A stretch of 60,728 bases of DNA, the filler included. It is 3 parts of 3 records of this genome, joined end to end, with 100 filler letters (N's around TTAATTAATTAA, not from the genome) between each part and the next. Parts side by side here need not be neighbours in the genome. Positions count along the whole stretch, not along the records: positions 13,657 to 36,301 come from DRR723986_6230; 2 more parts are not named here. One strand, given 5' to 3'. Every line of letters begins with the position of its first letter. Position 1 is the first letter of the stretch. Positions 13,285 through 33,144 of this stretch are shown here, one piece after another. The notes under the pieces are model-generated. The model was not told where the DNA came from and did no database searches. It worked only from the letters and a program-made list of their open reading frames with translations. Both the position numbers and the translations under genes were made by a program.

Positions 13285-13330
13285 CGCACGCCCTTTCCCG
13301 GCACAGCTTTCCAGCCCGGCGGCGCGGCCC

Positions 13331-13656: not shown

Positions 13657-13741
13657 AGCCAGAATCGCGTAATTTGGATTATGGAACATATTTAGCGCGG
13701 GCACATTTCGGAATGCCGCCCGCGCTTTTCTGGTCGTAATC

Positions 13742-14305: not shown

Positions 14306-14366
14306 TGTAACTCTCCCAGATTGAAGTCGCCGGTATCTGACAGGGATGAGGCGACGATATGGGAGT

Positions 14367-14391
14367 AACGCTCCGGAAATCACCGAGTTCC
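14367..14391 (-). promoter_or_regulatory. EcfG/sigmaT (general stress response) promoter
   Basis: Minus strand GGAAC-N16-CGTT, ~60 nt upstream of the PRC-barrel ATG; matches the alphaproteobacterial ECF15 consensus. Confidence 0.75.
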
Positions 14392-14958
14392 GGCGCATTT
14401 CAAGATTGAAACAGAATGTGAATGTACTGCTCTCATTTGCAGCCATAAATTGAAACTGAGATCGGGAGTACTGAGCTTCCCAAGAACGCGTAGCTGTACC
14501 TGCAGGGCATTCTCTGTGAGCCGATCTTCAGTTTCCGAAGATTCTTCAGCGCCGTGAACGTCTTTCAAGACCAACGCAATTCCGGCGGAAAACGTGCTCA
14601 TTAACTTGCCGACAAACCTGGATTTGCAGAACAACCGAATGCCTGAAGCCGGATCCACAAAAGATAGCCACGTTGCAAGTCCGCGAGACGCAGTTCTTAT
14701 CAACCCGGCAGTTATGAAATCAGTGTATTTCCACAGCAAAAGTGGAACTCATTCCATACGTATTTCCATGTTCGCATGATCAGCGGAAGAGATATTAATT
14801 CAATCAACTCTGATACTTAGAGATATATATTTCGAAACCTAGGTAAATTTCGCAAGGTATCATTGGGTGCTGTTGCATTAACCTTTTCGGAATCAAGTTC
14901 ACTCAGTTTCATCACGTCAGACCGACAGCAAGCGACCTCAAGCTCTCGATAATAGAAC

Positions 14959-15660
14959 ATGCGCACACCGAGTTACCTACTGGCAGTTTCCGTAATCAAG
15001 GGCATAATCACAGGCACTGCGGCAGCGGCCTCCGCAACAGTCACGCCTGTTCACGCTGAGAATATCAAACCTTACGTCTGGTCTTTTTCAAAGCCATCTG
15101 AAAGTTCCTACAACATGACGGTAGGCGCTCAGCTTCCTGTTCCGGGCCGGCCTGCATTCGGATCGGATATCAACATGCCAGCAGCATTGCCCAGGCATGT
15201 GCTCAATGCGCCACGCAGCTACGTACCGAGTGGAACGCTATGGACACGACTGCGTTTCGAAGACGACTACAAATTGGCAGGAATGGACGAGACGGACCTG
15301 ACCTTGCGCTTTGACCCGGACAGCGACCTTGCATCGACCAGATTCACTGCAGGAAAGAAAATCAAACTCACAAGGCACGCCCATCTGATTTTGCGAGATT
15401 CCTATTCTTTCCGGACGCCCGGTTTCGAGACGAATGACATTGACTGGAACACCACCAAGAGCGTGGAAGTGTCTCTGGGCCCGACCGCAACAGTGCTGGC
15501 AGCGGAATTCAACAACTCAAAAGACGACGCCGTGTGGCACTCGAGCGTTTCGTTGCAACAACCCTTGACCAAAGCCTTCACGCTTCGGGCAAGCATCAGG
15601 GAAATACAGACACAAAATCCTAGTTCGGTTTTCAAGGCTCGGTATTCCCGTACCTGGTAA
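14959..15660 (+). CDS. hypothetical exported beta-rich protein (possible small outer-membrane barrel)
   Basis: 233-aa ORF, signal-like N-terminus, amphipathic strands, C-terminal FKARYSRTW. Confidence 0.65.
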   Translation: MRTPSYLLAVSVIKGIITGTAAAASATVTPVHAENIKPYVWSFSKPSESSYNMTVGAQLPVPGRPAFGSDINMPAALPRHVLNAPRSYVPSGTLWTRLRFEDDYKLAGMDETDLTLRFDPDSDLASTRFTAGKKIKLTRHAHLILRDSYSFRTPGFETNDIDWNTTKSVEVSLGPTATVLAAEFNNSKDDAVWHSSVSLQQPLTKAFTLRASIREIQTQNPSSVFKARYSRTW

Positions 15661-15685
15661 CTGTGCCCTTTGCGACACCGGGGAT

Positions 15686-17236: not shown

Positions 17237-17551
17237 GAAGTTTCCAGTCGGTCTTGCTTCGTCGTCGTTGAAAGACGAACGAACGGACAAATTAGTTCAT
17301 GGTGCAAAACACCGGGCTTCCAGGTTGGGAACAGGATCGCAGGAATGAGGCGTCGTTTTGACAAAAGTCGGCCATGCGCAAGGCAAGTTTATGAAGGCTC
17401 GAATTCAACGCCACTGACGTGCCCACCGAGTTGGTGCAGGATCAGCACTCCCGGGAAGACCGCAAAGTTTCAAGATCCCCTCATTTTGGCGCTCCCCCCC
17501 TGCCCGGAAGCAGTACCCGCTCAAGCGGATCCCGCTCCCCGCGGCGCCCAA

Positions 17552-18826
17552 TCAGCGCGCAGCGAGGCCGAACAGGGATTTTGCCAGCGCAAGTTTGCCC
17601 TCGGTCGCCCGTTCACAACATGCCCGGAAGTAACCGCCGGGCGAGCTGATTTTTTCCGGATCTCGCAAGGCCTTTTCGGCCACCATCGCCAGAATTGCCG
17701 CCGCAACGTGCCTCCCCAGCCTTCCGCAGGCTTCGGTAAAGCCTTTTTCACTTAATCCGATGCCGATCCGCAGCACGTCGGTTGCGGCGATGAGATCCGG
17801 CCAGCTTTTAAGAGACAGCCCAAAATCGCCCTGGATCGACGTACATGCGCTTTCCAGCAAAGAGATCGAAACAGCATCCAGGGTTTCCGATCGGATAAAA
17901 TCCGCCTTACCGGAGCCTTTCTGCGGAGTATATCCCCTGTTGGAGCCCCCACCCCGCTCCGCTTGCTCCTTTTCAGGAGCTATTTCGGCGCCGTTGGCGA
18001 CGTTAGTCTTATTTTTGATTTCATCTGCGTGAGCAGATGTCCGGTTATTTGAACAAAAGTCTGGTGAGTTTGTATTAAATATAGGGGTGACATTGATGTC
18101 ATCTTCGCATGACGAATCCCCATTTTTATGGGCTGTTGACTGTGTATTTGAAGCCTCCTTCAGAGCTTCCATCACCAGGTCGTAAAGGTCCAGCAACGCC
18201 TGAGCTTTTGCCTGAACATCAGTCTCCGCGTCCAGAATGCCTGCCATCTGATCCAGGAAGTCTGTCAGGTCGACGTCTTTCGTTGCATCGACGATGTCGA
18301 CAATCGCCCTGGAGATCCTCATGACCGTCCGTTTGGCTTCCCTAACAGCATTGAGATGAGCCTGCCATTCGTCGGCCAGGCGCTTGATTTCGCGGTATCG
18401 CACTCTTGCCGGCGTGAAATCGAGACCATAGGCAAAGGTAATGTCGCCACTGTCGTTGCGGTGCACCCACCTGCGGCCGGTAGAACTGTCCCTGTAGGCG
18501 AGAATACGGGCCTCGACCAGCTGCTTGATGGCGCGAATGACCGTTCGTTCACTCTTGCCGACATATGAGGCAAGCTTCTCATTGGAGATGGCAACGACAG
18601 GCCTGTTGTCCCCTTTCCAGTCGTCCGGCTTTGACAGGCCAAGCAGGATGTCCAGGACATGGTAGGCAGTCGACGTGAGACCGATCGGCTGGGCCGCACG
18701 TTTCAAGGCAATAGCGACTTCGGATTTTCCAATATCGGGAATGTCGTTCGACATTGCCAGACGCTGGGACGCAAGTATCCCCGGCGTCACCTTTCGGAAG
18801 GAAGAGACGTTCGAAACAGCAGGCAT
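17552..18826 (-). CDS. repC: plasmid replication initiator RepC
   Basis: SFRKVT, PVVAISNEKLA, LAYRDSSTGRR, YGLDFTP, SPGGYFR; third gene of repABC. Confidence 0.95.
   Translation of the reverse strand: MPAVSNVSSFRKVTPGILASQRLAMSNDIPDIGKSEVAIALKRAAQPIGLTSTAYHVLDILLGLSKPDDWKGDNRPVVAISNEKLASYVGKSERTVIRAIKQLVEARILAYRDSSTGRRWVHRNDSGDITFAYGLDFTPARVRYREIKRLADEWQAHLNAVREAKRTVMRISRAIVDIVDATKDVDLTDFLDQMAGILDAETDVQAKAQALLDLYDLVMEALKEASNTQSTAHKNGDSSCEDDINVTPIFNTNSPDFCSNNRTSAHADEIKNKTNVANGAEIAPEKEQAERGGGSNRGYTPQKGSGKADFIRSETLDAVSISLLESACTSIQGDFGLSLKSWPDLIAATDVLRIGIGLSEKGFTEACGRLGRHVAAAILAMVAEKALRDPEKISSPGGYFRACCERATEGKLALAKSLFGLAAR
17995..18150. other. probable oriV (AT-rich segment inside repC)
   Basis: Locally AT-rich (ttatttttgattt, ttgtattaaatata) with a GANTC site; repABC origins lie within repC. 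Confidence 0.5.
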
Positions 18827-18930
18827 GACAACCTCCGTTCGCCGACACGAGCCAACGTGCGGCGTTATACGTTTCAGGAGGTTCAACTTCGGGAAATCGG
18901 CAGAAATCCACCGTTCACACAAGATGGATC

Positions 18931-18959
18931 TTGCGCGTGATTCGGAATTCGCCTAAAAC
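18931..18959 (+). promoter_or_regulatory. promoter of the repABC countertranscript
   Basis: TTGCGC-N17-TAAAAC with GATTC in the spacer, antisense to repABC in the repB-repC gap. Confidence 0.6.
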
Positions 18960-18964
18960 AGGAA

Positions 18965-19050
18965 AGTGTTGAGGTTCCTGTTTGGACGTTCCAAGTTGAA
19001 CCGTGATTAAAGAGACTGAACGGTTGCCGCCGTTTCGGTCTCTTTTCATT
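18965..19050 (+). ncRNA. repABC countertranscript RNA (ctRNA/RepE-like incompatibility RNA)
   Basis: Canonical position and orientation; ends in hairpin aaagagactgaacgg/ccgtttcggtctcttt followed by a U-rich tail. Confidence 0.72.
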
Positions 19051-19199
19051 TGGTCTCTATTTCTCTCGCACCGTCTCCTTCCTCACGGGGCCTGGCCGAA
19101 ATCCGGCCTCTTGCCGATATGCCCCGGGACGACACTTGAACACCTGCCCCGGATCATTGTGCGCTCGGCATACCCTTTCGAGGTATGCCGCGACCATCT

Positions 19200-20204
19200 T
19201 CAGCCCTTCGTACGTCCCGCGTCCTGCCGTTGCCGCAGATAATCGCGATAGACGTCCGGAAGGTTCTCCTCCAGCCAGTGACTGAATTCAGCTTCGGATT
19301 TCGGTATCGAGAACACGGTTGCCGCCGATGTTCTCTTCAGTTTTGCCAGTACCGTTCCGTTCGATGTGATTTCTGCTGCAGCCTGAGTTGCCGGTGCAGC
19401 CTTCTTTTGTTTGCCTCTTGCTGCCTGCGTTACCATGGACATTCTGTCCTGCGCAGCAGCCAGCCTGAAATCCTCACCGTCTATGACGGATCGAACGCGC
19501 TGTTCGGCGGCAGGGTCTTCAAACAGCTTCGCCAGTTCCATCCACGCCGGCCGGCCAACATTCCTGGCACGGCCAATCGCGCGAATGATATCGTGCGGGA
19601 TGCTGTCGGCGATCTTCCGCATATTGGAAATGACCGTTTGAACCTGGCCGAGCACCGGCTGCATCTCGCGCTGCTTGAGCCCTGCTTCGCGCAGCTGCAC
19701 AGCCCACAGGACCATCTCCGCGAAGGTCAGGTTTTCGCGGACGCCGTTTTCAAGCGACTGTTCCTTGATCAGCTCGGCATCGCTCAGCTTGCGAACGTAC
19801 GCCTTGACCTTGAACGTCTCCGGTTTGCCGGCTTCCGCCATCAATGTCTGAATGGCAAACAACCTGCGGTGTCCATAGGCCAGCTGATAGCGGTCCCGTT
19901 CCGTGGGGTGCGGGCGCACCAGAACGGGGATCCTCTGCCCCTCATCCTGGATCGAAAGCTTGAGTTCCTCGAGAGCCTCCTGCGCTTCGAGGTCTGTTTC
20001 GAAGCGATCGGAAAACGGGCTTGGGTCGATTTTCGACGGATCAAGGGCAACGATGCTGTCCTCGCGCATATGCGACAAGGCGCGCCCCATGGAATTCACG
20101 ACGGGTGCGGTTACCTTCTGGCCCGCAACCGGTTTGGGCGGCTCCTTCTTGTCGGCAGCTGCAGCCGCCGCGTCGGACATCATTTTGACGATCGACTTTT
20201 TCAT
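19200..20204 (-). CDS. repB: plasmid partitioning protein RepB (ParB family)
   Basis: GQRIPVLVRPHP, YQLAYGHRR, ENGVRENLTFAE, VGRPAW. Confidence 0.95.
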   Translation of the reverse strand: MKKSIVKMMSDAAAAAADKKEPPKPVAGQKVTAPVVNSMGRALSHMREDSIVALDPSKIDPSPFSDRFETDLEAQEALEELKLSIQDEGQRIPVLVRPHPTERDRYQLAYGHRRLFAIQTLMAEAGKPETFKVKAYVRKLSDAELIKEQSLENGVRENLTFAEMVLWAVQLREAGLKQREMQPVLGQVQTVISNMRKIADSIPHDIIRAIGRARNVGRPAWMELAKLFEDPAAEQRVRSVIDGEDFRLAAAQDRMSMVTQAARGKQKKAAPATQAAAEITSNGTVLAKLKRTSAATVFSIPKSEAEFSHWLEENLPDVYRDYLRQRQDAGRTKG

Positions 20205-20206
20205 CG

Positions 20207-21445
20207 TCAAACCTCCCTGCCCCATACACTCTTGATCAGATCGAGAATTTCGGCGTTGACGCGGTCTGCGCTTTCCAGCGCCCGCTTCAGGGTTTCCCGG
20301 CCGACTTCACCGGATTCGATCTCGTAGAGACTTTTCTTGGCAACGCCGGCAGATGCGATGGCGGTCGATTCAATCGCCTCGGCCACAAGGACGTCAGTCC
20401 CGAACAAGTCCCGCATGGTGCCGGACATGATCTTCTGCGGCCCGTCGTTGGGATTGACCCTGGTCAGCAGGAACTTGGTGAAGTCATGTTCAAAAACCGC
20501 ACCGCCTTCGGACAACGTGTGAGTCACATCCGAAATCATCTTCAGGAACTGGGAGCATGACGAAACGTCGAGCATGGCCGGGTGAACGGTGATGATCAGG
20601 CCCGTTGCCGCATAAAGGGCCGCCATCGTCGTGTAGCCGAGCGAAGGTGGCGTATCGAGGACAACGACGTCATAGTGCTCTTCAACCGACTGGATCACGG
20701 CATCGAGACGCTGGAAGAACAGGCCAAGCTCGTCGGTCGTCCTTTCGGCAAGCGCGGTCGGCGTATCGTATTCGAAATCCATCAGGCGCAGGTTGCCGCA
20801 GGCAAGGTGAATGCCCGGGAAGTAGGTCTCGCGTATGACCTCGGAGAACGGCACGCGGTAATTGTCATAGCGCAAAGCGTCGTAGGTCGTGTCGGTCCGT
20901 TCGTCATCGTCTTCGCCGGACCGAAGATCACGATCCGGCTGAATGCCGAAGGTCGTGGTCATGGAGGCCTGGGGATCCAGGTCGACACACAGCACCCGGT
21001 AGCCCTGGATAGCCAGGTAATGGGCCAGATGAACGGAGGTGGTCGTCTTAGAGCTGCCACCCTTGAAGTTCGCAGCAGCAACGACCTGCAGTTTTTCTCC
21101 CGGTCGACGATGAGGCACGAGGCGATGCGCATCGTCAGGCCTGAGTTCCGCGAGGAATGCCCTCAGTTCCCAAACCTGATCGACCGTATAGATCCGGCGG
21201 TTGTTTTCGGCGCGATGCGGCTGCGGGCCCTTGCCTTCCAGCGTCAGGGTGCGAAGCGTGCTTTCCGGCACGCCCAGCAGACGAACCAGATCCGTCGTGG
21301 AAAACGTCCGGCCGAAAACCTTGCGGGCTTCCGGCGGGTAGGTCATTTCGCGCATCGTCTGCAAACGGTCAGAAAGCTTCTGCGTGAAACTTTCGATTTT
21401 TGCGGTCGTATCGCGTCCACCGGAAAATTGTTCGGTAACGGCCAT
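20207..21445 (-). CDS. repA: plasmid partitioning ATPase RepA (ParA family)
   Basis: N-terminal HTH, NFKGGSSKTT, VDLDPQAS, DTPPSLG, HPAMLDV. Confidence 0.96.
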   Translation of the reverse strand: MAVTEQFSGGRDTTAKIESFTQKLSDRLQTMREMTYPPEARKVFGRTFSTTDLVRLLGVPESTLRTLTLEGKGPQPHRAENNRRIYTVDQVWELRAFLAELRPDDAHRLVPHRRPGEKLQVVAAANFKGGSSKTTTSVHLAHYLAIQGYRVLCVDLDPQASMTTTFGIQPDRDLRSGEDDDERTDTTYDALRYDNYRVPFSEVIRETYFPGIHLACGNLRLMDFEYDTPTALAERTTDELGLFFQRLDAVIQSVEEHYDVVVLDTPPSLGYTTMAALYAATGLIITVHPAMLDVSSCSQFLKMISDVTHTLSEGGAVFEHDFTKFLLTRVNPNDGPQKIMSGTMRDLFGTDVLVAEAIESTAIASAGVAKKSLYEIESGEVGRETLKRALESADRVNAEILDLIKSVWGREV

Positions 21446-21936: not shown

Positions 21937-24189
21937 CTACTTTTTCAACTCTCCATAGAGCCCAAGCAGAGCGCCAGGAAGCCTGGAAAGGTCCGCGAGC
22001 TTTCTGACATTCTTGCCGCCAAAAATCCTGCCGGAATAATCGTTGCGGTTGTCGCCGAGCGAGAAACAGAAAACATCGATGCCGGCCATCGCCAATTCGC
22101 GCAAGGCGAAACGGGCGTCCTCCAGGAGATAATCCGGATCATCGACGTCAATATCGGACGGCTCCCCGTCAGTCACCACCAGCAATACCTTTCGATATGC
22201 CGTCCTTTCGGCAAGCTCACGCCCACCGTGACGCATAACCGGGCCGAGCCGGGTCGAGAAAGCACTTTCCAGACCGGCCAAGCGTTCATACACGCCTTGG
22301 TCGACCGATTGGCCGAAGTCCTTGATCCGCGCATATCGGACTGTCTCCCGAGTGTCCGAGCAAAACCCTGCAAGTGCGCAATTGTCGCCGGTCGTCTCCA
22401 TCGCCCCGGCCATTATCGCAGCAGACAGGCGTTCAAGATCGAGAACGCTGGCGCCCCCTTCGCCTGCCGGCTCGCCGGTGGAGTGTGACTGGTCGATCAG
22501 CAACAGGATGTCCAGGTCCCGTCCCTTGCAACTCTTCCGGCCGAAGATCCTCGGATCGGGGATCTCCTGGTTGCGGCGACTTGCCTGGGCATCGATGCAT
22601 GCATCCAGATCGAGAAAGTCACCGGTTTCCAGCCGGCGCTCCCGCTGGAACGCATTTACATTGGCACCGGAGATCAGAGAGATGAGAGAACTCTGTATCC
22701 TGGTTTCTTGCGTGAGGCTCCGCAACAGACCGGTTGCCGCCTTTCGCGGCGCCTCAGTGACATGAACAGTGCACCAGTCCGGGCGCATGCGGCGGCTGAC
22801 ATGATCGTATTCGGGATAGGTGATCAGCCGGGTTACCGCGTCCTCATCTCGAAGCCGTAGCTTTTCCGCTGCCGCGGCCTCTTCCTCGCGCTTTTCGTCC
22901 TCTTCGGGCTCCTGCCGGTCGGCCTCGTCGCGTTCTTGTTGCTCCAGGCGCACACCTTCCGTTTCAACTGCAACATCCATCTCGATCAGGTCTGGTTCCT
23001 CGTCGAAGGTCCAGATACCGAGGTTGTCGTCCCTGTAGGCCGGCTGCACCACATAAGTGCGGGCGTCGAACTGCAGCCGCATCTGCCCCAGATCGTTGGC
23101 AAGCAGTCCGCCAATTCTCCGGCAGAAGGTCTGGTCGTTGGGGGTCGCGGCAAAGGCTTCCTCGAACAGGCGTTTTCCTTTCTCCACCCAACCGTTGGTA
23201 TCGCTGTATTCCGGATCTATCAGCGTGCGCGACAACCGTGCCATCAAGGTTGTCGCCAGGTCTGCGGAGCGTGCATCCATGGTGTGGAAGCTGCTCCAGA
23301 GAGACCTCAGTCCCGGCATCTTTTGCAGAGCGAGCCGTTCGACCCGCGCGTCTTCAAGCAAGGAGATAACGGCGACTTGCAAGGGTTTCAGGGACTTTCG
23401 CTCAAACACCTGCCGGGTGAAGGCAATGTGAGCGCCGACATGGGCAAGAGCCGCATGATAAAGCTTCAGGCTGTCCGCGCGGTCGAAACCCGGAAACCCC
23501 GACGGCAGACGAATGCCATCCCGCCCGAACCCGGCCCTGCGAAGCATTTGCTCCGGAGCTGTGGCCGGGGTCTCGACAATGGGCGGAAGCTGACCCCACA
23601 AGGCGGCATGAAACGTCTTCAACCGAAGCTCTTCATCGTCAAAACGCAAGACTGACGACTGCCGGTCAAGAAAGTGCCGCGCTTCCGGGTCTTCACCAGC
23701 GAGAAACAACCGCGCCTTTTCGCGGTTCGTCAGTCTGAGTGCCAACCCCATGCCGACGAATGTCCTGTAGCCGGACAAGCCGATTTCTGCCAGGGATCTG
23801 TCAGACGTCTCAAGCAGTGCTTCAACGGCTTCCGGCAAGTCGCGTCCGGTCCGTTCCAAAAGCGCGCACCACTCCGAAAAAGCAGGAAATGTCTTCAAGT
23901 GCTGCGCTGCGCGAGCCGCTGTATTCGGCACCCTTGCCGATGCGCGCCGGCCGGAACGAATGGCAATCCAGGAAACCAGGCGTCCGAGATCGGCTGCGGC
24001 TTCTTCCGAAACCGCCTCTGCAACCATCGGGCCACAAATACGATAGGCTTGCGTTACGGTTTCGCCGTAACCGGCCTGGGCAATCCGGGACAGGGCTTTA
24101 GTCCAGACGGCAGACATTTGCCGTTCATATTCGCGCGTCTCAACGGTGTTGGTCTTTGCCGTGGCAGCCTCGGTCATCGTCGCCGCCAT
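21937..24189 (-). CDS. cbbO: CbbO-type von Willebrand factor A adaptor (CbbO/NorD family), 750 aa
   Basis: AHVGAH, LEDARVE, YRDDN, YPEYD..RPDW, MIDAS DQSHS, STRLG, TDGEPSDIDV; length and motifs fit CbbO better than NorD. Confidence 0.85.
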   Translation of the reverse strand: MAATMTEAATAKTNTVETREYERQMSAVWTKALSRIAQAGYGETVTQAYRICGPMVAEAVSEEAAADLGRLVSWIAIRSGRRASARVPNTAARAAQHLKTFPAFSEWCALLERTGRDLPEAVEALLETSDRSLAEIGLSGYRTFVGMGLALRLTNREKARLFLAGEDPEARHFLDRQSSVLRFDDEELRLKTFHAALWGQLPPIVETPATAPEQMLRRAGFGRDGIRLPSGFPGFDRADSLKLYHAALAHVGAHIAFTRQVFERKSLKPLQVAVISLLEDARVERLALQKMPGLRSLWSSFHTMDARSADLATTLMARLSRTLIDPEYSDTNGWVEKGKRLFEEAFAATPNDQTFCRRIGGLLANDLGQMRLQFDARTYVVQPAYRDDNLGIWTFDEEPDLIEMDVAVETEGVRLEQQERDEADRQEPEEDEKREEEAAAAEKLRLRDEDAVTRLITYPEYDHVSRRMRPDWCTVHVTEAPRKAATGLLRSLTQETRIQSSLISLISGANVNAFQRERRLETGDFLDLDACIDAQASRRNQEIPDPRIFGRKSCKGRDLDILLLIDQSHSTGEPAGEGGASVLDLERLSAAIMAGAMETTGDNCALAGFCSDTRETVRYARIKDFGQSVDQGVYERLAGLESAFSTRLGPVMRHGGRELAERTAYRKVLLVVTDGEPSDIDVDDPDYLLEDARFALRELAMAGIDVFCFSLGDNRNDYSGRIFGGKNVRKLADLSRLPGALLGLYGELKK

Positions 24190-24192: not shown

Positions 24193-25020
24193 TTACAGGC
24201 AGGCAGAAACAGCGGAGGACATCGCAGCGCGGATCTCCGGCTCATCCACGAGCGGCAGCACGATGGCAATCTGACAGGCCTCTTCCAGCGGCACGCCTTG
24301 CGCTGTCAGCTGACCGGCCGCAATCAACATGCGCGTCGATGCACCTTCGCGCAGTCCGTGACCCTTGAGGTTCCGGGATCTTTCCGCAACCCGGACAAGA
24401 ACCCTTGCTGTTTCAGGCTCGACACCGGCTTCGCGCGCCACGATTTCCGCTTCGATTGCCGCATCAGGATAGTCGAAGGAAATCGCGCAGAACCGCTGCC
24501 GGGTGGATTCCTTCAGATCTTTAAGCACACTCTGATAGCCGGGGTTGTAGGAGATCACGAGCTGGAAGTCCGGATGCGCTTGGACCAGTTCATTCTTCTT
24601 TTCCAGCGGCAAATGGCGGCGATGGTCGGTCAGGGAATGGATGACGACCGTCGTGTCCTGCCGCGCTTCCACCACTTCGTCGAGATAACAGATCGCACCG
24701 TTCCGGACGGCCGCCGTCAGCGGGCCGTCGTGCCAGACGGTACCGTCGGCATCCAGCAGAAACCGTCCGACCAGATCCGACGCCGTCATGTCCTCATGAC
24801 AGGACACCGTGACGAGAGGACGCTTCAGCCGCCAGGCCATGTGCTCGACAAACCGCGTTTTGCCGCATCCCGTCGGCCCCTTCAGAAGGATCGGCAACCG
24901 TGCGGCATAGGCGGCTTCATAATGGCCGACCTCCTGTGCAAAGGGGCGATAAAAGGGTTCGCTGACAATGCGATAGGCGTCAATCGGGTCCTCAATCGGA
25001 CCAGCTATCGGTGCATTCAT
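24193..25020 (-). CDS. cbbQ: CbbQ-type MoxR AAA+ ATPase (CbbQ/NirQ/NorQ family)
   Basis: [77 protein letters not shown]. Confidence 0.92.
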
Positions 25021-25209
25021 TCCTGGACTTCCTGTTGAAGACGCTGCAGCGGGGGAAATCGCTGCAGCGCCAGGAGGATGCGGCGCTGCGAACCGCATCG
25101 CTCGGGAGGATCGCTGGATCAGCGCGTGCCGCCAGGTTGCTGGCCTTCGGCAAGAGCTGATCGATTTCGAACCGGGCGAGAGACTTCCCGCCCGGACTGG
25201 ACCTGAGCC

Positions 25210-26247
25210 CTAGCGGTGGGTGCTTGCGCCGTTCGGGATGCCTTCCATCGGACATTCCTCGGTGCCGACCGTCGTGCGGGTCATGGCCTCGACCATCTCC
25301 CGCGTTCCTTCCGGATCGTTCACCCAGTTGGCGTAGAAGTTATAGGGGCAGGCTGCCTGGCCCTTGTCGCCGTCGCCGGAGTTGATCGTGCCGGTGTAGC
25401 CGCGGTGCAGCAGTTTGAAGAGGTGGTTCTGCGACTGCATGTTCTTGCGGGCATCGCGGATCCCCGACACCGACATCTGGGCATATTGAATGCCGTTTTC
25501 TTCGGTGCCGCATTCTCCCAGCGTCCGGCCGTCGAAACCGATCAGGGCCGAATGGCCGAAATAGGAATAGACGCCATCGAAGCCGGCGGCATTTGCAACC
25601 GCCACATAGCAGTTGTTCGCCCAAGCCATGGATTTGGAAATCTGGATCTGCTGCTCCTTGGCCGGATACATGTAGCCCTGGCAGCGGATGATGAGTTCCG
25701 CCCCGCGCATGGCGCAGTCACGCCAGATTTCCGGATAGTTGCCGTCGTCACAGATGATCAGGCTGATCTTCATCCCCTTCGGGCCTTCCGAGACGTAGGT
25801 GCAATCGCCCGGATACCAGCCTTCGATCGGCACCCAGGGCATGATCTTGCGGTATTTCTGGACGATCTCGCCCTTGTTGTTCATCAGGATGAGCGTGTTG
25901 TAAGGCGCCTTGTTTGGGTGATCCTCGTGTCGCTCGCCTGTCAGGGAGAACACGCCCCAGACGTTCGCCTTCTTGCAGGCTTCGGCGAAGATGGCCGTTT
26001 CCTCTCCAGGCACCTGGGAAGCGGTTTCGTACATCTCCTTGGGGTCATACATGATCCCGTGGGTGGAATATTCCGGGAAGATCACCAGGTCCATGCCCGG
26101 AAGGCCGACCTTCATTCCCGCGATCATGTCCGCGATGTTGCGGGCATTGGCCAGCACTTCCTCGCGGGTATGCAGACGCGGCATCTTGTAGTTGACCACC
26201 GCCACGCCGACGGTGTCGTTGCTGCTGGAAATATCACCGTGATACAT
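25210..26247 (-). CDS. amiE: aliphatic amidase (nitrilase superfamily)
   Basis: [25 protein letters not shown]; catalytic E (FPEYS), K (YRKI) and C (ICDDGNYPE); RBS GAAGGAGG. Confidence 0.97.
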
Positions 26248-26280
26248 CAATTCCTCCTTCTAGGAACGGGTTGCCGCGCC

Positions 26281-26976
26281 TCAGACCACGAGGTGTTCGT
26301 GGACAAGGTCGTCGGACAGTTGGGCAATGCCGGAAGTGACCGCGACGGTGCCGCGGTCGAGGATCGCGAACCGGTTCGAGGCCCGGCGTGCGAAAGTGAG
26401 GTTCTGCTCCACCAGAACGATGGTGAGGCCCCTGGTTCGGTTCAGGTCGATCAGGACATCCTCGATCTGCTCGACGATGTTGGGCTGGATGCCTTCCGTC
26501 GGCTCATCGAGCAGAAGCACCTTGGGCTGGGAAAGAAGCGCCCGACCGATTGCAAGCTGCTGCTGCTGACCTCCGGAAAGGTTGCCGCCCCGCCTGTTCA
26601 GGAACTCCTTCAGGATCGGAAACAGCTCCAGCACCCAGTCGGCGATCTCACCCTGGCCCGATTGGGCGGCAAAGGTGCCGATCATCAAGTTCTCGCGCAC
26701 GGTGAAGGCCGGCAGGATGCCGCGGCCTTGCGGGACATAGCCGATGCCAGCGAGCGCTCTTGCGTGCGTCGGCAGGCTGTTCAATTCCATTCCGTCCAGC
26801 TTGACCGAACCGGACGTGCGGCTCATCAACCCGAGGACACTGCGAAGAAGCGTCGTCTTGCCCACGCCGTTGCGGCCGAGAACGGAGAAAAAATCACCCT
26901 CGTCAATGTCCATGGAAACGGACTGGAGCGCACGGCTTCGGCCGTAGAAACCATCGAGACCGTTCAGCTCAAGCAT
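26281..26976 (-). CDS. amide/urea ABC transporter ATP-binding subunit (UrtE-like)
   Basis: GRNGVGKT, YVPQGR, LSGGQQQQLAI, LDEPTEGIQPNIV. Confidence 0.92.
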   Translation of the reverse strand: MLELNGLDGFYGRSRALQSVSMDIDEGDFFSVLGRNGVGKTTLLRSVLGLMSRTSGSVKLDGMELNSLPTHARALAGIGYVPQGRGILPAFTVRENLMIGTFAAQSGQGEIADWVLELFPILKEFLNRRGGNLSGGQQQQLAIGRALLSQPKVLLLDEPTEGIQPNIVEQIEDVLIDLNRTRGLTIVLVEQNLTFARRASNRFAILDRGTVAVTSGIAQLSDDLVHEHLVV

Positions 26977-27730
26977 GGCCGGCCTCCTTCGTTCCAAGAT
27001 ATGCTTCCTTCACCCGCGGGTCGCTGGAGACTTCCTCCAGCGAACCTTCGGCAAGCAGCTTGCCCTGGTGCATGACTGAAATGGTTTCAGCAATGTCGCG
27101 CACGAATCCCATGTCGTGCTCGACGACAATCAGCGTGTGCTCGCCCCGCAGCCTGTTGAACAGCTCGGCCGTCTTGCCGGTTTCCTGCGCGGTCATGCCG
27201 GCTGTCGGCTCGTCCATCAGGATGAGTGTCGGGTTCTGGGCCAGGATCAGCGCGATCTCCAGCCATTGCGTCTGACCGTGAGACAGATGTCCGGCAGCAA
27301 GATCGAGATCGTCCTGAAGGCCGACCAGAACCGCAAGACGTTCGATGTCCTCGTCGTCATGACTTGCACCGAAACGCACGAGGTTGGCCAGAACGCCGGT
27401 GTTTCCTGATTGACCGATATTCAGGTTTTCCCGAACGGACAGTTCGCGGAAGACACTCGGCACCTGGAACTTGCGCCCGATACCGACACGGGCGATCTGA
27501 TATTCCTTCAGGGTATGGATCGCCTCGCCCTTGAAACGGATCTCGCCGGAGGTCACACGGGTCTTGCCGCAGATCAGGTCGAGTGCCGTGGTCTTGCCAG
27601 CACCGTTCGGTCCGATCAGGCACCGCAGTTCGCCGCTGTTCACATCCAACGACAGTCCTGAGATCGCCTGGAAACCGCCAAAGGACACACTGACGTCCCG
27701 AAGGCTGAGGTGGTCGGTTGCCGTCTTCAT
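26969..27730 (-). CDS. amide/urea ABC transporter ATP-binding subunit (UrtD-like)
   Basis: GPNGAGKT, GIGRKFQ, LSHGQTQWLEI, MDEPTAGM, VVEHDM. Confidence 0.92.
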   Translation of the reverse strand: MKTATDHLSLRDVSVSFGGFQAISGLSLDVNSGELRCLIGPNGAGKTTALDLICGKTRVTSGEIRFKGEAIHTLKEYQIARVGIGRKFQVPSVFRELSVRENLNIGQSGNTGVLANLVRFGASHDDEDIERLAVLVGLQDDLDLAAGHLSHGQTQWLEIALILAQNPTLILMDEPTAGMTAQETGKTAELFNRLRGEHTLIVVEHDMGFVRDIAETISVMHQGKLLAEGSLEEVSSDPRVKEAYLGTKEAGHA

Positions 27731-28845
27731 GACGCCGCCTCCGTGGTTTTCATGACATTGCTCGCGGATTTCCTGGCGCTGCCGGCGAAAAAGGGCAGCC
27801 GGTCGACGGCCATCGAGACGGCACCTGCAATGCCTTTCGGCAGAAACAGGACAGCGAGTACGAACAGCCCCCCCATGATCAGCATCCAGCTTTCCAGGAA
27901 GACTTCGGATTCCGACAGGGCCCCCTGGACGCCGGTCACGATCAGGGCTCCGATGGCAGCCCCCAGAAGGCTCTGCCGGCCGCCCACGGCGACCCAGATC
28001 ACCACAGAAAGACTGAGCGGCACGCTAAGGAATGTCGGCGAGGCGAATTCCATCACGATCGTGTAGAGCATGCCCGCCAGACCGGCGATGCCGGCCGACA
28101 GCGAGAAGACGAAGATCTGATAGAGCGCGACGTCGTAGCCGAAGAAACGCACCCGGTTTTCCTGATCGCGGATCGCTTGCAGGATCATGCCGGTCTTGCT
28201 GCGGGTAACCGCGAGCGACAGAAGCAGCACGGCACACAGGCACAGCGCAACCAGGTAATAGGTTGTCGCGGAATAGGCGTCGAAGAAGAAACCGGCCACT
28301 TCGAACTGGGCGAGATCCGTGATGCCGTTGAAGCCGCCGGTGTAGCGCTGCTGATCGATGATCAGGAGATTGACCACCACCAGAACGGCCAGAGTGATGA
28401 TCGACGCATAGACACCGGTGATGCGCCCACGAAACATGAACCAGCCGAGCAGTGCAGCAAAGGCGGCAGGGATCAGGAGCCCCGCCAGAATGGCGAAGGT
28501 CATGGAGTGAAACGGCGCCCAGAACCAGGGCAGTTCGGTGACATTGTTCCAGACCATGAAGTCCGGAAGCCCTTCGCTGCCGGTGTGCACCGGCACGGTG
28601 CGAAGCTTGAGGCCCATGGCCATGGCATAGGACCCCAGGCCAAAGGTGGCTGCCTGGCCGAGATTGAGAATTCCGGCGTAGCCCCAGGAGAGGCTGAGCG
28701 AGACTGCCAGGATGGCAAAGACCAGGTAGCGGGAATATTTGTTCAGGAGAAACGCATCGTCCAGCACGGACGGCACGAGCAAGATGGCTGCACAAAACGC
28801 CAGATAGAGCACCAGCCGAGCTGTTGATTTTCCAGTCAGGTTCAT
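27727..28845 (-). CDS. amide/urea ABC transporter permease (UrtC-like)
   Basis: WGYAGILNLGQ, LPDFMVWN, AIRDQENRVRFFGY, IWVAVGGR. Confidence 0.92.
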   Translation of the reverse strand: MNLTGKSTARLVLYLAFCAAILLVPSVLDDAFLLNKYSRYLVFAILAVSLSLSWGYAGILNLGQAATFGLGSYAMAMGLKLRTVPVHTGSEGLPDFMVWNNVTELPWFWAPFHSMTFAILAGLLIPAAFAALLGWFMFRGRITGVYASIITLAVLVVVNLLIIDQQRYTGGFNGITDLAQFEVAGFFFDAYSATTYYLVALCLCAVLLLSLAVTRSKTGMILQAIRDQENRVRFFGYDVALYQIFVFSLSAGIAGLAGMLYTIVMEFASPTFLSVPLSLSVVIWVAVGGRQSLLGAAIGALIVTGVQGALSESEVFLESWMLIMGGLFVLAVLFLPKGIAGAVSMAVDRLPFFAGSARKSASNVMKTTEAAS

Positions 28846-28873
28846 TGAATTGCGATCCTTTTTCCGGCCGTGA

Positions 28874-29743
28874 TCACGAGCGCACACGGGTCGAGAACAG
28901 GCCTTCGGGCCGAAAGCGGATGAGGATGACGATCGCCAGCAGGACCAGCGCCTTGGCCAGGGTGTCGTTGCTGTGGAAGGCCAGGAAACCCGAAAGTTCA
29001 CCCAGGATCCCGGAGCTTGCGACAGTGCCGAGCAGGCTCTGGGCACCACCAAGGACAACCACCATGAAGGCGTCGACGACGTAGGTCGTCCCCATTTCCG
29101 GAGAGACGCTCTTCAGCGGCGACACGAGCGCACCGGCGAGACCGGCGATGCCGGCGCCATAGGCGAAGGTCGATCGATAGATGCGGGCGGAATTTATGCC
29201 GAAGCTGGAGGCGATCTCCCGGTTCTGGGTAATCGCACGCAGTTTCAGCCCGAAGCTGGTGCGACGGTAGATAACCCAGGTGAGCCCGAAGAGGACAAGC
29301 GCAAGACCGAGGATGAACAGCCGGTAGGCGGACTCGCTTGCACCGAACAGGGACACGCTGCCACTGAGGAACGCCGGGATCTCGACATAACGCAGCTCGC
29401 CGCCGGCAATCAGCCGGATCGCCTGCTGCGCCATCACGCCAATGCCCCAGGTCGCCAGGATAGTGTCGAGCGGCCGGTCGTAGAGATGGCGGATGACCAG
29501 GGCTTCCACGGCCCAACCGAACACCGCAAGAATGAAAAAGATCGGGATCAGGCTTTCCAGCAATCCCATGCCAAGCTGGGACTGCAGAAACCAGGCGCAA
29601 TAGGCGCCCAGCATGACGAATTCGCCATGCGCGAGATTGATGACCCCGGTCACGCCGTAAATGACGGCGAGGCCAAGGGCGACCAGCATCAGGATCGAAG
29701 CGATACTGAGACCGGTCAGGAGTTGGGAGACGACAAGTTCCAT
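28874..29743 (-). CDS. amide/urea ABC transporter permease (short UrtB-like)
   Basis: GVINLAHGEFVMLGAY, RPLDTILATWG, DAFMVVVLGG. Confidence 0.92.
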   Translation of the reverse strand: MELVVSQLLTGLSIASILMLVALGLAVIYGVTGVINLAHGEFVMLGAYCAWFLQSQLGMGLLESLIPIFFILAVFGWAVEALVIRHLYDRPLDTILATWGIGVMAQQAIRLIAGGELRYVEIPAFLSGSVSLFGASESAYRLFILGLALVLFGLTWVIYRRTSFGLKLRAITQNREIASSFGINSARIYRSTFAYGAGIAGLAGALVSPLKSVSPEMGTTYVVDAFMVVVLGGAQSLLGTVASSGILGELSGFLAFHSNDTLAKALVLLAIVILIRFRPEGLFSTRVRS

Positions 29744-29823
29744 CTGCAAGCCTTCAAGGTCTGGAAAACATCAGGTCACGGAAAAGCCGGGCGGCGTGAC
29801 GACACGCCGCCCGTTTGCGCGTG

Positions 29824-31071
29824 TCAGCTGCTCTTCAGACCGTCAGCGGTGCAGACTTGACCGTCGTAGGCCTTGTAGGGAATGGGCTCGAGCCAGTCGG
29901 CGGACTGTTGCAGGATCTCGAACTGGCCATCCGACTTGCACTGGCCGATCTTCGGTCTCAGCCAGGTATGAAGGTTCTCGCCCTCGATCTTGACCAGTCC
30001 CTGCGGCGCGTTGAACTGCTCGCCCTTGACGGCCTCGCGGATGGTGGTGGGATCGATATCGTCCGGCGACAGTTTCTCGACGGCCTGCTTGAACAGATGC
30101 ACCTGGAAATAGGACGGCTCGGAGACGAAATGCGTGACCTTGTCGCCGCCCCAGCGGGACTTGTAGGCCTCGACGAATTTCTGGTTTTCCGGTGAATCCC
30201 AGACCATGAAATATGGTGCGGAGGTGAAATGCCCCGCGGCTGCCGCACCGCCCATCGCCGCCACTTCGTTTTCCGAGGTGGTCAGGCTGGCCATCGGCAT
30301 CTTTTCCGGGTCGAGACCGGCGGCATGATACTGCCGGTGCAGGGCGACAACGGAATCGCCGACCACCGTCGAAAAGATCACATCCGGCTTTTCCGCCTTC
30401 AGCTTGTTGATGACGGATGAGAATTCCGAATGACCGAGCGGCACATATTCCTCATGAACCACTTCGGCGCCAAGTTCGGCCAGCAACTTCTTGCAGTAGT
30501 TGTTCTCTTCCTTCGGATAGATGTAATTCGACCCGATCAGGTACCAGCGCTTGCCGAAATTCTTCACCAGCCAGGGCACGAACTCGTCCTGCTGCTGATT
30601 GGGGACAGCACCTGTGTAAATGACATTCTTCGAGCACTCGCGCCCCTCGTAGAGGGTAGGATACCAATAGAGATTGTCCCGCTTTTCGAACACGGGCAGC
30701 ACGGCCTTCCGGCTGGCCGAGGTATAGGAGCCGAAGACCGAAACGCATTTGTCCTGGAGGACAAGCTTGCGCGCCTTTTCCGCGAAAGTCGCCGGATCAG
30801 AAGCCGGGTCCTCAACCACCGGAACGATCTCCATGCCGTTGACACCGCCGGCGGCGTTGATTTCCTCGATCGCCATGATCGTCGCCTTGTTGAGCGACTC
30901 TTCGATAATCGCAGTCGTCCCGGTCAGGGAGAACAGAACCCCCACCTTGATCTGGCCGCCGGCGGCGCGCGCCAGCCCGCTGTTCTTGCTCCAGATATGC
31001 GGGAAGGTGCCGAGACCGGCTGCCCCGAAAGCGGCCGACCCGAGAAGAAAATTGCGCCTGTTGGTTTTCAC
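29824..31071 (-). CDS. amide/urea ABC substrate-binding protein (UrtA/FmdD/AmiC-like), Tat-exported
   Basis: GTG start with RBS GGAG; twin-arginine NRRNFL; IKVGVLFSLTG, YTSASRKAVLP, YPTLYEG, PNQQ. Confidence 0.92.
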   Translation of the reverse strand: MKTNRRNFLLGSAAFGAAGLGTFPHIWSKNSGLARAAGGQIKVGVLFSLTGTTAIIEESLNKATIMAIEEINAAGGVNGMEIVPVVEDPASDPATFAEKARKLVLQDKCVSVFGSYTSASRKAVLPVFEKRDNLYWYPTLYEGRECSKNVIYTGAVPNQQQDEFVPWLVKNFGKRWYLIGSNYIYPKEENNYCKKLLAELGAEVVHEEYVPLGHSEFSSVINKLKAEKPDVIFSTVVGDSVVALHRQYHAAGLDPEKMPMASLTTSENEVAAMGGAAAAGHFTSAPYFMVWDSPENQKFVEAYKSRWGGDKVTHFVSEPSYFQVHLFKQAVEKLSPDDIDPTTIREAVKGEQFNAPQGLVKIEGENLHTWLRPKIGQCKSDGQFEILQQSADWLEPIPYKAYDGQVCTADGLKSS

Positions 31072-31084
31072 GTTGCTGCTCCAT

Positions 31085-31174
31085 AAACAAAAAAAGCCCC
31101 GTCCGCCCTGCCTTGCGGCAGCTCGTTCGGGGCATCGTCGCCTCTGATTTTTGTGAACGCGGCTATGGTGCCGC
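31085..31174 (-). promoter_or_regulatory. ANTAR attenuator (dual hairpin + terminator), proximal to the SBP gene
   Basis: P1 gcggc-ACCATA-gccgc (31159-31174). P2 ggc-GACGAT-gcc (31131-31142) overlaps terminator gccccg...cggggc-TTTTTTT. Confidence 0.72.
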
Positions 31175-31199
31175 TGAGGGAAATGTCTGAATTTCAGAC

Positions 31200-31275
31200 A
31201 ACAAAAAACCCCACGTTCCGCCAAGACGAAAACCGTGGGGCTCTTTTACCCGGATGTACGTGGCGCTGTTGCCAC
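31200..31275 (-). promoter_or_regulatory. ANTAR attenuator (dual hairpin + terminator), distal
   Basis: P1 gtggc-AACAGC-gccac (31260-31275). P2 gggt-AAAAGA-gccc (31238-31251) overlaps terminator ccccacg...cgtgggg-TTTTTT. Confidence 0.78.
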
Positions 31276-31288: not shown

Positions 31289-31317
31289 AGATTAGCTAAG
31301 AAGTTCGTGCGAGTCAA
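31289..31317 (-). promoter_or_regulatory. sigma70 promoter embedded in the amiR 3' end
   Basis: TTGACT-N17-TAATCT; the -10 box includes the amiR stop codon and lies ~14 nt before ANTAR P1. Confidence 0.65.
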
Positions 31318-31945
31318 TTATCGCATTTGCAACTGCGCCAATAGTTACACGCCGTTCCATCGCCTGTCGGCGCAAATAGTTGTAAGCTTCCTCTTCGCTT
31401 ACATTCTTGACGCGAACCAACAGAGACTTTGCACGCTCAACAAGGCGCATTGTTCTGAGATTTTCATCAAGTTTATCGATCCGGTTTCTTAGTCGACGTT
31501 CGTAAAGAAAGTGCTCGCGCGCCAGAGCGACACAAGTCTGGACCGCGCGCTGGACGACCGGATAGTGCAGCACGCCATGGGCGGCGCAATTATGGATCAG
31601 CTTGAGATCCAGATTGCTGACACCGCGATCCACCAACACCAGACCGGCTTCCGGCTCTCCCGGCAACCAGGGGATACGTTTGGGCATGTCCTCGACCAGC
31701 GTGCAGAACACAAGATCGCAATCGACAGGCAACTGCGGCGGGATCGGCCAGATATGGCGCACCTCGCAACGCAGGCGCTGCAACTCCCGGATCAGGCGTT
31801 CGCCATCCGCATCGGGTTCGACGATAACCGCGATCCTGAGGTTCTGATGCGGAGTTGTCGCGGTGGCGTTCTTGCGCATGGCAGCCGCAGCCGACGTTCG
31901 TTGCGAAAGCGGACGCTTGGTCTTGGCCGCCGCGTTTGTGTCCAT
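31292..31945 (-). CDS. amiR: ANTAR-domain antiterminator AmiR (pseudo-receiver + ANTAR; start uncertain)
   Basis: ELQRLRCEVRHIWP; LVERAKSLL...SEEEAYNYLRRQAMERRVTI; follows amiC. Confidence 0.9.
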   Translation of the reverse strand: MDTNAAAKTKRPLSQRTSAAAAMRKNATATTPHQNLRIAVIVEPDADGERLIRELQRLRCEVRHIWPIPPQLPVDCDLVFCTLVEDMPKRIPWLPGEPEAGLVLVDRGVSNLDLKLIHNCAAHGVLHYPVVQRAVQTCVALAREHFLYERRLRNRIDKLDENLRTMRLVERAKSLLVRVKNVSEEEAYNYLRRQAMERRVTIGAVANAIIDSHELLS

Positions 31946-32001
31946 TTCCAGTGTCTCCCCGGTTGTCTGCTTGTTTGTCCAGGTTCTTCGGGAGGTTTGT
32001 G

Positions 32002-33144
32002 TCAGCTGTATTCGAGGCATCGGCCGTACCCAATCAAGTAAGGATCCGCCTTCACGCTGGAGGGCGATTCAAAAACGATATCGAACTGGCCGCTGCGGTT
32101 CGCGCGGCCGATGCGGGTCCACAGGTCGGCATGGCCCCAAACGGGGTTGATGGAAACTTCGCCCTGCGGGGCATCGAATTCCGATCCCATGACCGACTGG
32201 CGGATCATCGAGGTGTCCATCGAGTTGGTCTCGGCAAGGGTCTTGGCGAAGACATTCACCTGGAAATAGGACGCCTCCAGACACATGTTGGTCGGCTCGT
32301 CCTCTCCGTAGCGCTTCTTGTAACGGTCGATGAAGGTCGCATTGCGGTCATTGCCGACGCCCTGGAAATAGGAAGCGGCGGTCAGATGGCCGTCGCCGAC
32401 ATCATATCCCATCGCCCGGATCTCGGCCTCGGTTGTCGTCAGGCTGGCGATCGGCATCACCCTCGGGTCGATGCCGAGATCGGCATAGGCCTGGTAGAGA
32501 TATGTGGTCGTGTTTCCGACCACCGTGGAGAAGATCACGTCCGGCTGCAGCTGCCGGATTTCGCGCATGATCGGTACGAAGGAGTTCCTGTCCGCTCCCA
32601 GCCGGACATAACTCTCGCCGACGACACTGCCGCCGTTGTTGCGGATCAGCTCCCGCATGATGCGATTGGATTCGCGCGGATAGATGTAGTCCGACCCCAC
32701 GAAATAGAACCGCGTTCCATAGAGCTCCATCAGGATCCGGCACAGCTGGACGCTGTTCTGGTTGGGCGTTGCTCCCGTGTAGATCACGTTGGAGGAAAAC
32801 TCGAAGCCCTCGTAAAGCGTCGGATACCACAAAAGGCCGTTCAGTCTTTCAACCACAGGCAGAACGGCCTTGCGGCTGGACGAGGTATAACAGCCGAATA
32901 TCGTGCTGCAGCCGTCCTCGACCATAAGCTTCTTTGCAAGAAGCCCGTAGTTGCGCGAGTCCGAACCCGGGTCATAGATAATCGGCTCGATGGGCCGTCC
33001 GTTGATCCCGCCGCTATCATTGATTTCATCGATCGCCGTCAACGTCCCGCGCAACTGGGTTTCCTCGATCACCGACATGTAGCCGGATTGCGAGAACAGC
33101 ACACCGACGCGCCACGGTTCGGAAGTTTTGCATGAACTGGTCAA
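32002..33144 (-). CDS. amiC: amide-sensing negative regulator AmiC (cytoplasmic PBP fold)
   Basis: No signal peptide; VGVLFSQSG, GCYTSSSRKAVLPVVER, YEGFEFS, PNQNS, SDYIYPRESN, ASLTTTEAE. Confidence 0.9.
   Translation of the reverse strand: MTSSCKTSEPWRVGVLFSQSGYMSVIEETQLRGTLTAIDEINDSGGINGRPIEPIIYDPGSDSRNYGLLAKKLMVEDGCSTIFGCYTSSSRKAVLPVVERLNGLLWYPTLYEGFEFSSNVIYTGATPNQNSVQLCRILMELYGTRFYFVGSDYIYPRESNRIMRELIRNNGGSVVGESYVRLGADRNSFVPIMREIRQLQPDVIFSTVVGNTTTYLYQAYADLGIDPRVMPIASLTTTEAEIRAMGYDVGDGHLTAASYFQGVGNDRNATFIDRYKKRYGEDEPTNMCLEASYFQVNVFAKTLAETNSMDTSMIRQSVMGSEFDAPQGEVSINPVWGHADLWTRIGRANRSGQFDIVFESPSSVKADPYLIGYGRCLEYS

Follow-up and report, generated by a model that had tools for sequence, protein, structure and literature searches.

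Within a 60,728-nucleotide stretch of DNA (the window), the minus strand carries an aliphatic amidase gene, amiE, followed directly downstream by genes for a MoxR-family AAA+ ATPase of the CbbQ type (Q) and then for a CbbO-type adaptor (O). The amiE open reading frame (ORF; 25210..26250, minus strand) comprises 346 codons from a TTG, with the likely start at an ATG one codon on, and closes with a TAG at 25210-25212. Its product was identified as an aliphatic amidase by a full-length match to NCBIfam NF009802 (716 bits, above the curated cut-off of 427) and by a match to Pfam CN_hydrolase (PF00795). Residues E59, K134, E142 and C166, which we take to be catalytic, were invariant across 45 homologues. 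AmiE was 80-90% identical to 80 genomic homologues, the best 80 of at least 585 matches, and its solved homologues are 2plq and 2uxy. As claimed in a first-pass annotation of this DNA, the protein ends in -His-Arg: minus-strand positions 25213-25260 translate to the tail, and the TAG follows. On the basis of sequence comparison, AmiE is probably a client of the adjacent CbbQ-type hexamer and CbbO-type adaptor, with this C-terminal His-Arg as the recognition tag.

Q is encoded by a 301-codon ORF (24193-25098, minus) with matches to PF07728 (AAA_5, 4e-35) and PF08406 (CbbQ_C, 3e-29) and with intact Walker A (GPTGCGKT, 24856-24879, minus) and Walker B (YLDE, 24676-24687, minus) motifs. The true start of Q is likely an internal ATG at 25020, because homologues begin to align only at about residue 31-45. 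Translation from the ORF's first ATG adds about 26 Ala/Pro-rich N-terminal residues that were unmatched in any homologue. Q begins about 110-190 nucleotides past the amiE stop, on the same strand. O (21937..24189, minus; PF00092) is a 750-residue protein with a C-terminal VWA domain at residues 560-717. Its MIDAS, an adhesion site that depends on a metal ion, is complete, comprising DQSHS (22480-22494, minus) as the DxSxS element and TDGEP (22159-22173, minus) as the element with the downstream D; DxSxS and the downstream D were invariant among 45 homologues. The O homologues of betaproteobacteria were shorter, at about 560-600 residues. A search of the window for homologues of RbcL, CbbM, NorB and AmiB found none.

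The last two codons of amiE, CAC CGC (25213..25218, minus), form the proposed client tag and are separated from a conserved G-I-P motif by the spacer N-G-A-S-T (25219..25233, minus), which is variable in sequence. Across 45 Q/O-linked AmiE the His of the tag was invariant and the Arg nearly so. In 81 unique tagged AmiE, the distance from G[IL]P to the C terminus was 5-10 residues including the tag, and was 7 in 57 of the 81. An AlphaFold2 model of an AmiE homologue (mean predicted local distance difference test score [pLDDT] 72) placed the final 23 residues in coil with a pLDDT of about 50-57; an AmiE structure paper describing the C terminus was not found in the literature searched. AmiE is the sole H-K/R-ended protein of its island, as had been noted from the letters alone, and the same holds for the whole 60.7-kb window, where it accounts for 1 of 176 ORFs of at least 100 amino acids.

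The significance of such an ending comes from Rubisco. The premise of the first-pass annotation, that Q/O-linked Rubisco carries an H(K/R) tail together with a surface acidic residue, agrees with the available text of PMC4660213. [quoted passage not shown] An 11-residue tail peptide stimulated the ATPase activity of CbbQO, and a surface Asp/Glu was required together with the CbbO MIDAS (PMC4660213). In the portion available of a second paper, tail residues determine specificity between paralogous Q/O pairs, and the site that binds the Rubisco tail is called 'as yet unidentified' (PMC8718961).

Co-segregation of the tag with Q/O, the comparison proposed in the first-pass annotation, was examined in 128 AmiE loci (125 distinct proteins). 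These comprised the window and three sets: 80 loci with 8-kb flanks, the best 80 of at least 585 genomic AmiE relatives (set A); 24 loci with 1.5-kb flanks, from the 24 genomes with AmiE above the cut-off in an even draw of 401 Pseudomonadota genomes (set B); and 23 plasmid records picked for taxonomic spread from 66 that matched (set C). AmiE ended in H[KR] at 84 of the 128 loci, and Q and/or O lay within the fetched locus for 80 of these 84. The other 44 were untagged, and none had Q/O. When Q/O elsewhere in the genome was counted as well, H[KR] was found in 84 of 84 AmiE with Q/O in the locus or genome and in 0 of 44 without, so that the ending was conserved in Q/O-linked AmiE and absent from AmiE lacking Q/O.

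The same pattern was seen in each set. Set A contained 66 H[KR] endings (64 HR and 2 HK) and 14 NY endings, with Q and/or O at 62 of the 66 versus none of the 14. All seven HR-ended AmiE of set B had Q and O beside amiE, and AmiE-associated Q/O was found at none of the 17 untagged loci. In set C, Q and O accompanied 9 of 10 H[KR]-ended AmiE and 0 of 13 untagged ones; the non-Pseudomonadota plasmid AmiE that were fetched, four from Rhodococcus and one from Bacillus, were all untagged and without Q/O. Untagged ends were diverse, with NY, AAK, PRN, DPR, HEG and WTR among them. Endings contrasted within genera, between Azospirillum sp. TSH58 and A. oryzae, between Burkholderia arboris and both B. 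cenocepacia and B. vietnamiensis, and between two classes of Bradyrhizobium AmiE. The distance of Q/O from amiE varied, and either strand was used. One genome (G137) was considered as a counter-example, since it has an untagged AmiE 4.4 kb from Q/O. It was rejected: this Q/O directly follows a form I Rubisco ending ...KLDVSHR, and the gene next to the G137 AmiE encodes an AmiB-like ATPase.

AmiE is highly conserved, with a mean column identity of 89%, and its protein tree was poorly resolved (15 of 105 inner branches starred, four usable pairs; eight tag changes on the best tree). It was replaced by a tree of amiE DNA from which the last 25 codons had been removed (126 rows, 963 columns). On the DNA tree the tag needed 11 changes, at least nine of them forced by starred branches. 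All nine independent pairs that differed in Q/O differed in the tag in one and the same direction (sign test, p 0.004). With uncorrected locus-level states, 8-9 pairs were concordant, none was opposite and 3-4 were unchanged, the last corresponding to the four tagged loci in which Q/O is not adjacent.

These trees bear on the possibility that the HR end is a neutral lineage marker, which accompanies Q/O through shared ancestry and linked loss while the tail goes unread. Many of the 84 tagged rows are close Bradyrhizobium and Mesorhizobium relatives, only two changes are forced by the well-supported branches of the protein tree, and in Acidithiobacillus caldus the tag persists beside a decayed O, all of which a marker of this kind would accommodate. 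However, the changes forced on the DNA tree were all matched by Q/O, and untagged ends are of many unrelated kinds. A column scan found that the terminal H and R alone separate tagged from untagged AmiE (differences of 0.99 and 0.92; next 0.59). Thus, the tagged class is without the further fixed differences expected of a lineage marker. The residues before the tag vary freely, whereas the tag is kept through synonymous change: in the 84 tagged genes the His codon was CAT in 42 and CAC in 42, Arg was encoded by five codons, and all three stops were used. Mixed synonymous codons indicate that selection acts on the amino acids. In addition, the identical motif is read experimentally by the sister system, as described in the available text of PMC4660213. 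Together, these observations make a neutral marker quite improbable. A nucleotide-level constraint behind HR, such as RNA structure or gene overlap, was also considered and was rejected in view of the mixed codons and stops and of the variable distance and strand of Q/O.

Another possibility is that AmiE is a bystander and that the client of Q/O is some other island protein, such as urease, the Urt transporter, acetyl-CoA synthetase or a second amidohydrolase. Genes do intervene in places: a urease cluster separates amiE from Q/O in Ancylobacter polymorphus, a permease and a hydrolase lie between them in Roseateles, and one genome has its Q/O directly after another CN-hydrolase and a 458-residue ORF. 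The intervening genes vary by locus, however, and AmiE is the only constant neighbour; in the window the interval to Q on the shared strand is short. Among 3,872 ORFs of at least 100 amino acids around Q/O at 76 tagged loci, 100 ended in H[KR], and AmiE alone recurred, at 76 of 76 loci. The next H[KR] cluster comprised six loci and was an ORF antisense to amiE. A client other than AmiE is therefore hardly to be expected.

The kind of Q/O was examined by comparison with solved structures and by phylogeny. Q matched the CbbQ structures 5c3c (396 bits) and 6l1q (375 bits) above NorQ (315 and 299 bits), and O matched solved NorD in the VWA region only (residues 448-748). In a 109-row tree of Q, for which NorQ served as the root, 97 rows formed one clade (support 95) with NorQ outside, comprising 77 AmiE-type Q, 16 Rubisco-linked Q and 4 Q from stretches without a client. 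The Rubisco-type Q made up a subclade of their own (support 89), set among lineages of AmiE type. The best tree did not show the AmiE-type Q as one clade, and such a clade was not rejected (p-AU 0.44); thus, the direction of the client switch is not set by the Q tree. As judged from these sequences, AmiE-type and Rubisco-type Q are each other's closest relatives. At four loci (L123, L163, L164 and L166), Q/O pairs of the Rubisco subclade were observed with Rubisco absent within 7 kb, and at L123 a divergent LysR-type regulator gene lies by Q/O.

A positive control was provided by Rubisco itself. Twenty further Q loci were taken from the even draw, and in 11 of them Q/O lay by a Rubisco of form I or form II. 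Of 16 Q/O-linked Rubisco large subunits (G137 included), the same pipeline found 15 with an H[KR] ending. At the locus of a form II enzyme ending ...GKHA beside Q/O (L160, genome G165; 7082-9627), the genome search reported two in-frame TGA codons in Q; this system may be decaying, or the ending may be a variant of the tag. Among the seven set B genomes with tagged AmiE, three had no RuBisCO_large match, and four had a distant Rubisco-like protein or a far-off, untagged form I enzyme. Thus, the Q/O pairs of these genomes cannot be Rubisco activases. The norCBQD sets of the sampled genomes were separate loci, with Q proteins 54-59% identical to the window Q (tblastn/blastp), and none of the NorB and NorC proteins checked beside NorQD had an H[KR] ending.

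Since AmiE-type Q falls within the clade of Rubisco CbbQ, these results are read economically as one recognition code applied to two unrelated folds. The single Q clade likewise indicates that the tag-reading site was most likely inherited, with the client switched between two unrelated folds. The first-pass annotation had proposed such a shared code in full. Its tail half is supported by the co-occurrence of tag and Q/O, by the nine concordant pairs and by the Q clade; its second half, an acidic residue for the MIDAS, did not fare as well, since a search of the alignment turned up no acidic column that marks the tagged class, and so no AmiE counterpart to this part of the Rubisco code. The MIDAS contact could yet be an acidic residue shared by all AmiE.

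Some AmiE have a different AAA+ protein as neighbour. An AmiB-like ATPase with AAA_2 and ClpB_D2-small domains was found beside 12 of the 44 untagged AmiE versus none of the 84 tagged AmiE, within flanks that in set B extended 1.5 kb and would miss remoter copies. These loci are L084, L088, L089, L091, L094, L100, L101, L130, L145, L146, L150 and L152. Thus, AmiB-type and Q/O-type ATPases exclude each other. AmiB-linked AmiE had tails of ...GKEKxAx or similar, never H[KR]; the first-pass annotation had expected no such ending on P. aeruginosa AmiE. The AmiB-linked amiE corresponds to the type of the Pseudomonas aeruginosa operon, and AmiB, in the available text of PMC12591593, is a poorly described protein hypothesised to be a chaperone. 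AmiE thus falls into three groups: tagged and accompanied by Q/O, differently tailed and accompanied by AmiB, or lacking an adjacent AAA+ gene.

A mechanism for the tagged class can be proposed by analogy with CbbQO and NorQD. One O would dock on the Q hexamer and place its VWA finger in the pore, as CbbQO biochemistry and NorQD structures suggest. O or Q would read the free ...His-Arg carboxy terminus of one AmiE subunit, and the MIDAS metal of O would take a surface carboxylate of AmiE as a second holding point. ATP-driven rotation would then strain AmiE between the tail and the MIDAS points, and Q would pull the enzyme open. In the Rubisco counterpart, strain opens a closed, inhibitor-bound active site; in AmiE the outcome would be a buried catalytic cysteine pocket freed of a dead-end adduct or tight inhibitor, making the pair a putative 'amidase activase'. 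Slow inactivation of the P. aeruginosa amidase by urea and related compounds, for which no source was found in the literature searched, would suit a setting with an Urt transporter and urease genes nearby. Binding of AmiE to O was also modelled. The complex prediction for Delftia acidovorans AmiE and O (L037; 345 and 576 residues), made from full-length chains with a 45-row alignment for each and with Mg included, gave 0.08 and 0.13 against a mark of 0.32 without controls, and as a model is evidence neither for nor against AmiE-O binding.

If AmiE is the client and the tail its tag, the analogy with Rubisco makes repair, rather than assembly or control, a somewhat favoured purpose. The alternative keeps AmiE as client and HR as tag, and has Q/O carry out assembly or maturation of the AmiE hexamer, or switch it on and off. 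For comparison, NorQD acts a single time on nitric oxide reductase, as that enzyme matures. The nearest non-Rubisco relatives are indeed maturation factors, NorQD inserting the non-haem iron of nitric oxide reductase (PMC13036017, in the part available), and the sole paper on the adjacency of these genes suggests 'assembly/activation' (PMC13209695, likewise). An inhibited state of AmiE, moreover, was not found in the literature searched. Against this, Q groups with CbbQ rather than NorQ, and those members of the CbbQ clade that have been characterised act on a mature enzyme, to repair it. To our knowledge, AmiE is not an enzyme into which a metal or other cofactor has to be inserted. Assembly does not generally call for a helper either, given the 32 of 44 untagged AmiE that have no adjacent AAA+ gene. 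We therefore regard assembly or control as unlikely, and repair of AmiE as the reading to be preferred.

Several observations weigh against AmiE as a tagged client of Q/O. The evidence is comparative throughout, and the sampling was non-random: the best 80 of at least 585 relatives were taken, 23 of 66 plasmid records were chosen, and the even draw covered one phylum. Q/O was non-adjacent in four tagged loci. In two of these it lay 9-13 kb off on the same contig; in the other two, another contig carried a Q that shared 95-96% identity with the Q next to AmiE in the nearest relatives. The A. caldus plasmid AmiE retains its ...CRHK ending beside a broken O and without Q. The phylogenetic support is uneven, given how few tag changes the well-supported protein branches force and given that 11 DNA-tree rows were of deviant base composition, which makes false groupings possible. 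Nor is the tag absolute in Rubisco, since one Q/O-linked form II enzyme ends in KHA and carboxysomal forms use NR (PMC8718961, in the available text). The tag-specific acidic column sought above was not found, nor was a documented inhibited state of AmiE (urea, hydroxyurea) in the literature searched. Finally, 32 of the 44 untagged AmiE loci lack an adjacent AAA+ gene, and therefore AmiE does not need a helper in general.

The A. caldus megaplasmid locus (L149; 8004-13109) has O broken into two ORFs and no Q, followed by two IS5 transposases. The helper seems to have decayed recently here, with the tag retained.

The remainder of the window island consists of transport, regulatory and replication genes. 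Upstream of amiE lie five genes of an Urt-like (urea/short-chain amide) ABC transporter (26281..31224, minus; ABC_tran, BPD_transp_2 and Peripla_BP_5), namely two ATPases, two permeases and a binding protein, and the corresponding genes are annotated as urtABCDE beside amiE-Q-O on named plasmids. Farther upstream lie AmiR, an ANTAR antiterminator (31292-32020, minus; PF03861 and PF21332), and an AmiC-like ligand sensor (32002-33144, minus; PF13433), which are amidase-operon regulators; further neighbours on this side are an alpha/beta hydrolase and a cytosine/purine-family permease. On its downstream side, O is adjoined by a repABC-type replication and partition module (17552-21445, minus) encoding a ParA-like protein with a MerR domain, RepB/ParB and RepC. 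Thus, the amidase island adjoins a plasmid replication origin region. AmiE was 100% identical to AmiE of several Roseibium and Labrenzia plasmids, which places the window on a repABC-type megaplasmid of the Roseibium and Labrenzia group. The amiE bearing the tag is carried on a plasmid of marine bacteria.

Gene content around other tagged AmiE was also recorded. Urt 'urea' transporters precede amiE at most tagged loci, and on plasmids of Shinella sumterensis (L139) and A. polymorphus (L141) amiE and Q/O have a complete urease cluster beside them or between them; a single module seems to deal with both urea and short amides. On plasmids of Rhizobium etli (L134) and Brucella anthropi (L135), acs, encoding acetyl-CoA synthetase, follows O on the same strand at about 12200-14160, which completes a route from acetamide through acetate to acetyl-CoA. 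At a further locus (L122, genome G404; 13950-19220), Q/O lies 11 kb from the tagged AmiE and directly follows a CN-hydrolase paralogue (27% identical to AmiE, ending ...HYTA) and the 458-residue ORF.

The amiE-Q spacer (25099..25209, minus) may reach 25021 if Q starts at its internal ATG. Several stable hairpins were predicted in its transcript, one of them formed by the palindrome CGCTGCAGCG, which is present twice. Folding of 25015-25215 (minus) gave -97.2 kcal/mol with a z score of -4.3, and none of 200 shuffles was equally stable. In one RNA-library run, two contigs with depths of 554 and 187 abutted exactly at the amiE stop. The hairpins may act as a partial terminator that sets the level of Q/O below that of AmiE. 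RNA-library contigs from four studies covered amiE, Q and O, and some single contigs bridged the amiE-Q junction. These contigs are no more than compatible with co-expression, as contigs show neither a transcript nor a level.

CbbQO has so far been known only as a Rubisco activase, with one proven client. [quoted passage not shown] A search for an H[KR] tag on a non-Rubisco client found none in the literature searched, the supplements of the CbbQO papers not being covered. What is new here is a CbbQO-type machine with a probable client of unrelated fold that bears the same tag; gene adjacency alone had already been published (PMC13209695).

We tentatively suggest, as a possibility less secure than the client relationship itself, that His-Lys/Arg is a portable tag of the whole CbbQ/CbbO clade, inherited through a client switch, and that the amidase is a second enzyme in need of ATP-driven active-site repair for which two AAA+ machines, one of CbbQO type and one of ClpB-D2 type (AmiB), were recruited in separate lineages. 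In that case, a small, soluble homo-oligomer could be used to map the tag-reading site, and other enzymes might become clients by addition of a tail. An unrelated second client that is soluble and easily assayed would separate what is general (tag reading and two-point pulling) from what is specific to Rubisco. Amidases are used in biocatalysis and in the removal of acetamide and acrylamide. The proposal raises the question of whether amidases suffer a dead-end state that is repaired with ATP in cells. For annotation, it implies that Q/O pairs beside amiE are not to be named NorQ/NorD or Rubisco activase. The two mutually exclusive AAA+ types beside amiE parallel the several activase classes of Rubisco, for which at least three AAA+ classes evolved (bioRxiv 10.1101/2020.06.14.151407, in the part available).

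The window system can be compared with four known ones. CbbX, the red-type Rubisco activase, is likewise an AAA+ protein that acts via the C terminus of its client (PMC4660213, in the available text), but it has no adaptor and shows little sequence specificity in threading the tail through the pore, and it is unrelated to the window genes. The P. aeruginosa amiE-amiB-amiC-amiR-amiS operon also has an ATPase gene adjoining amiE, and AmiC-like and AmiR proteins are encoded in the window as well; AmiB, however, belongs to the AAA_2 and ClpB_D2-small branch and lacks a VWA partner, and Q/O occupies its place in the window. NorQ and NorD share with Q and O the pairing of a MoxR AAA+ protein with a VWA protein, including the resemblance of O 448-748 to the solved NorD VWA domain, and a finger-in-pore arrangement with two-point pulling is probably common to both (PMC13036017, in the part available). 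NorQ is nevertheless more distant from Q by bit score and falls in a separate clade, and NorD is shorter (open frames of about 600-660 residues) and encoded with norCB, whereas the window has no NorB. The CbbQO Rubisco activase of Acidithiobacillus ferrooxidans and Halothiobacillus neapolitanus differs in its client, which here would be a nitrilase-superfamily amidase in a window that encodes no Rubisco, and in its MIDAS-bound Asp82/Glu75, for which no AmiE counterpart was found. It is alike in the domains and clade of Q, in an O of similar length (750 residues in the window against the 750-780 or so expected of CbbO) with a C-terminal VWA domain and complete MIDAS, in genes that adjoin the presumed client, and in a client whose His-Lys/Arg end is present only where Q/O is present.

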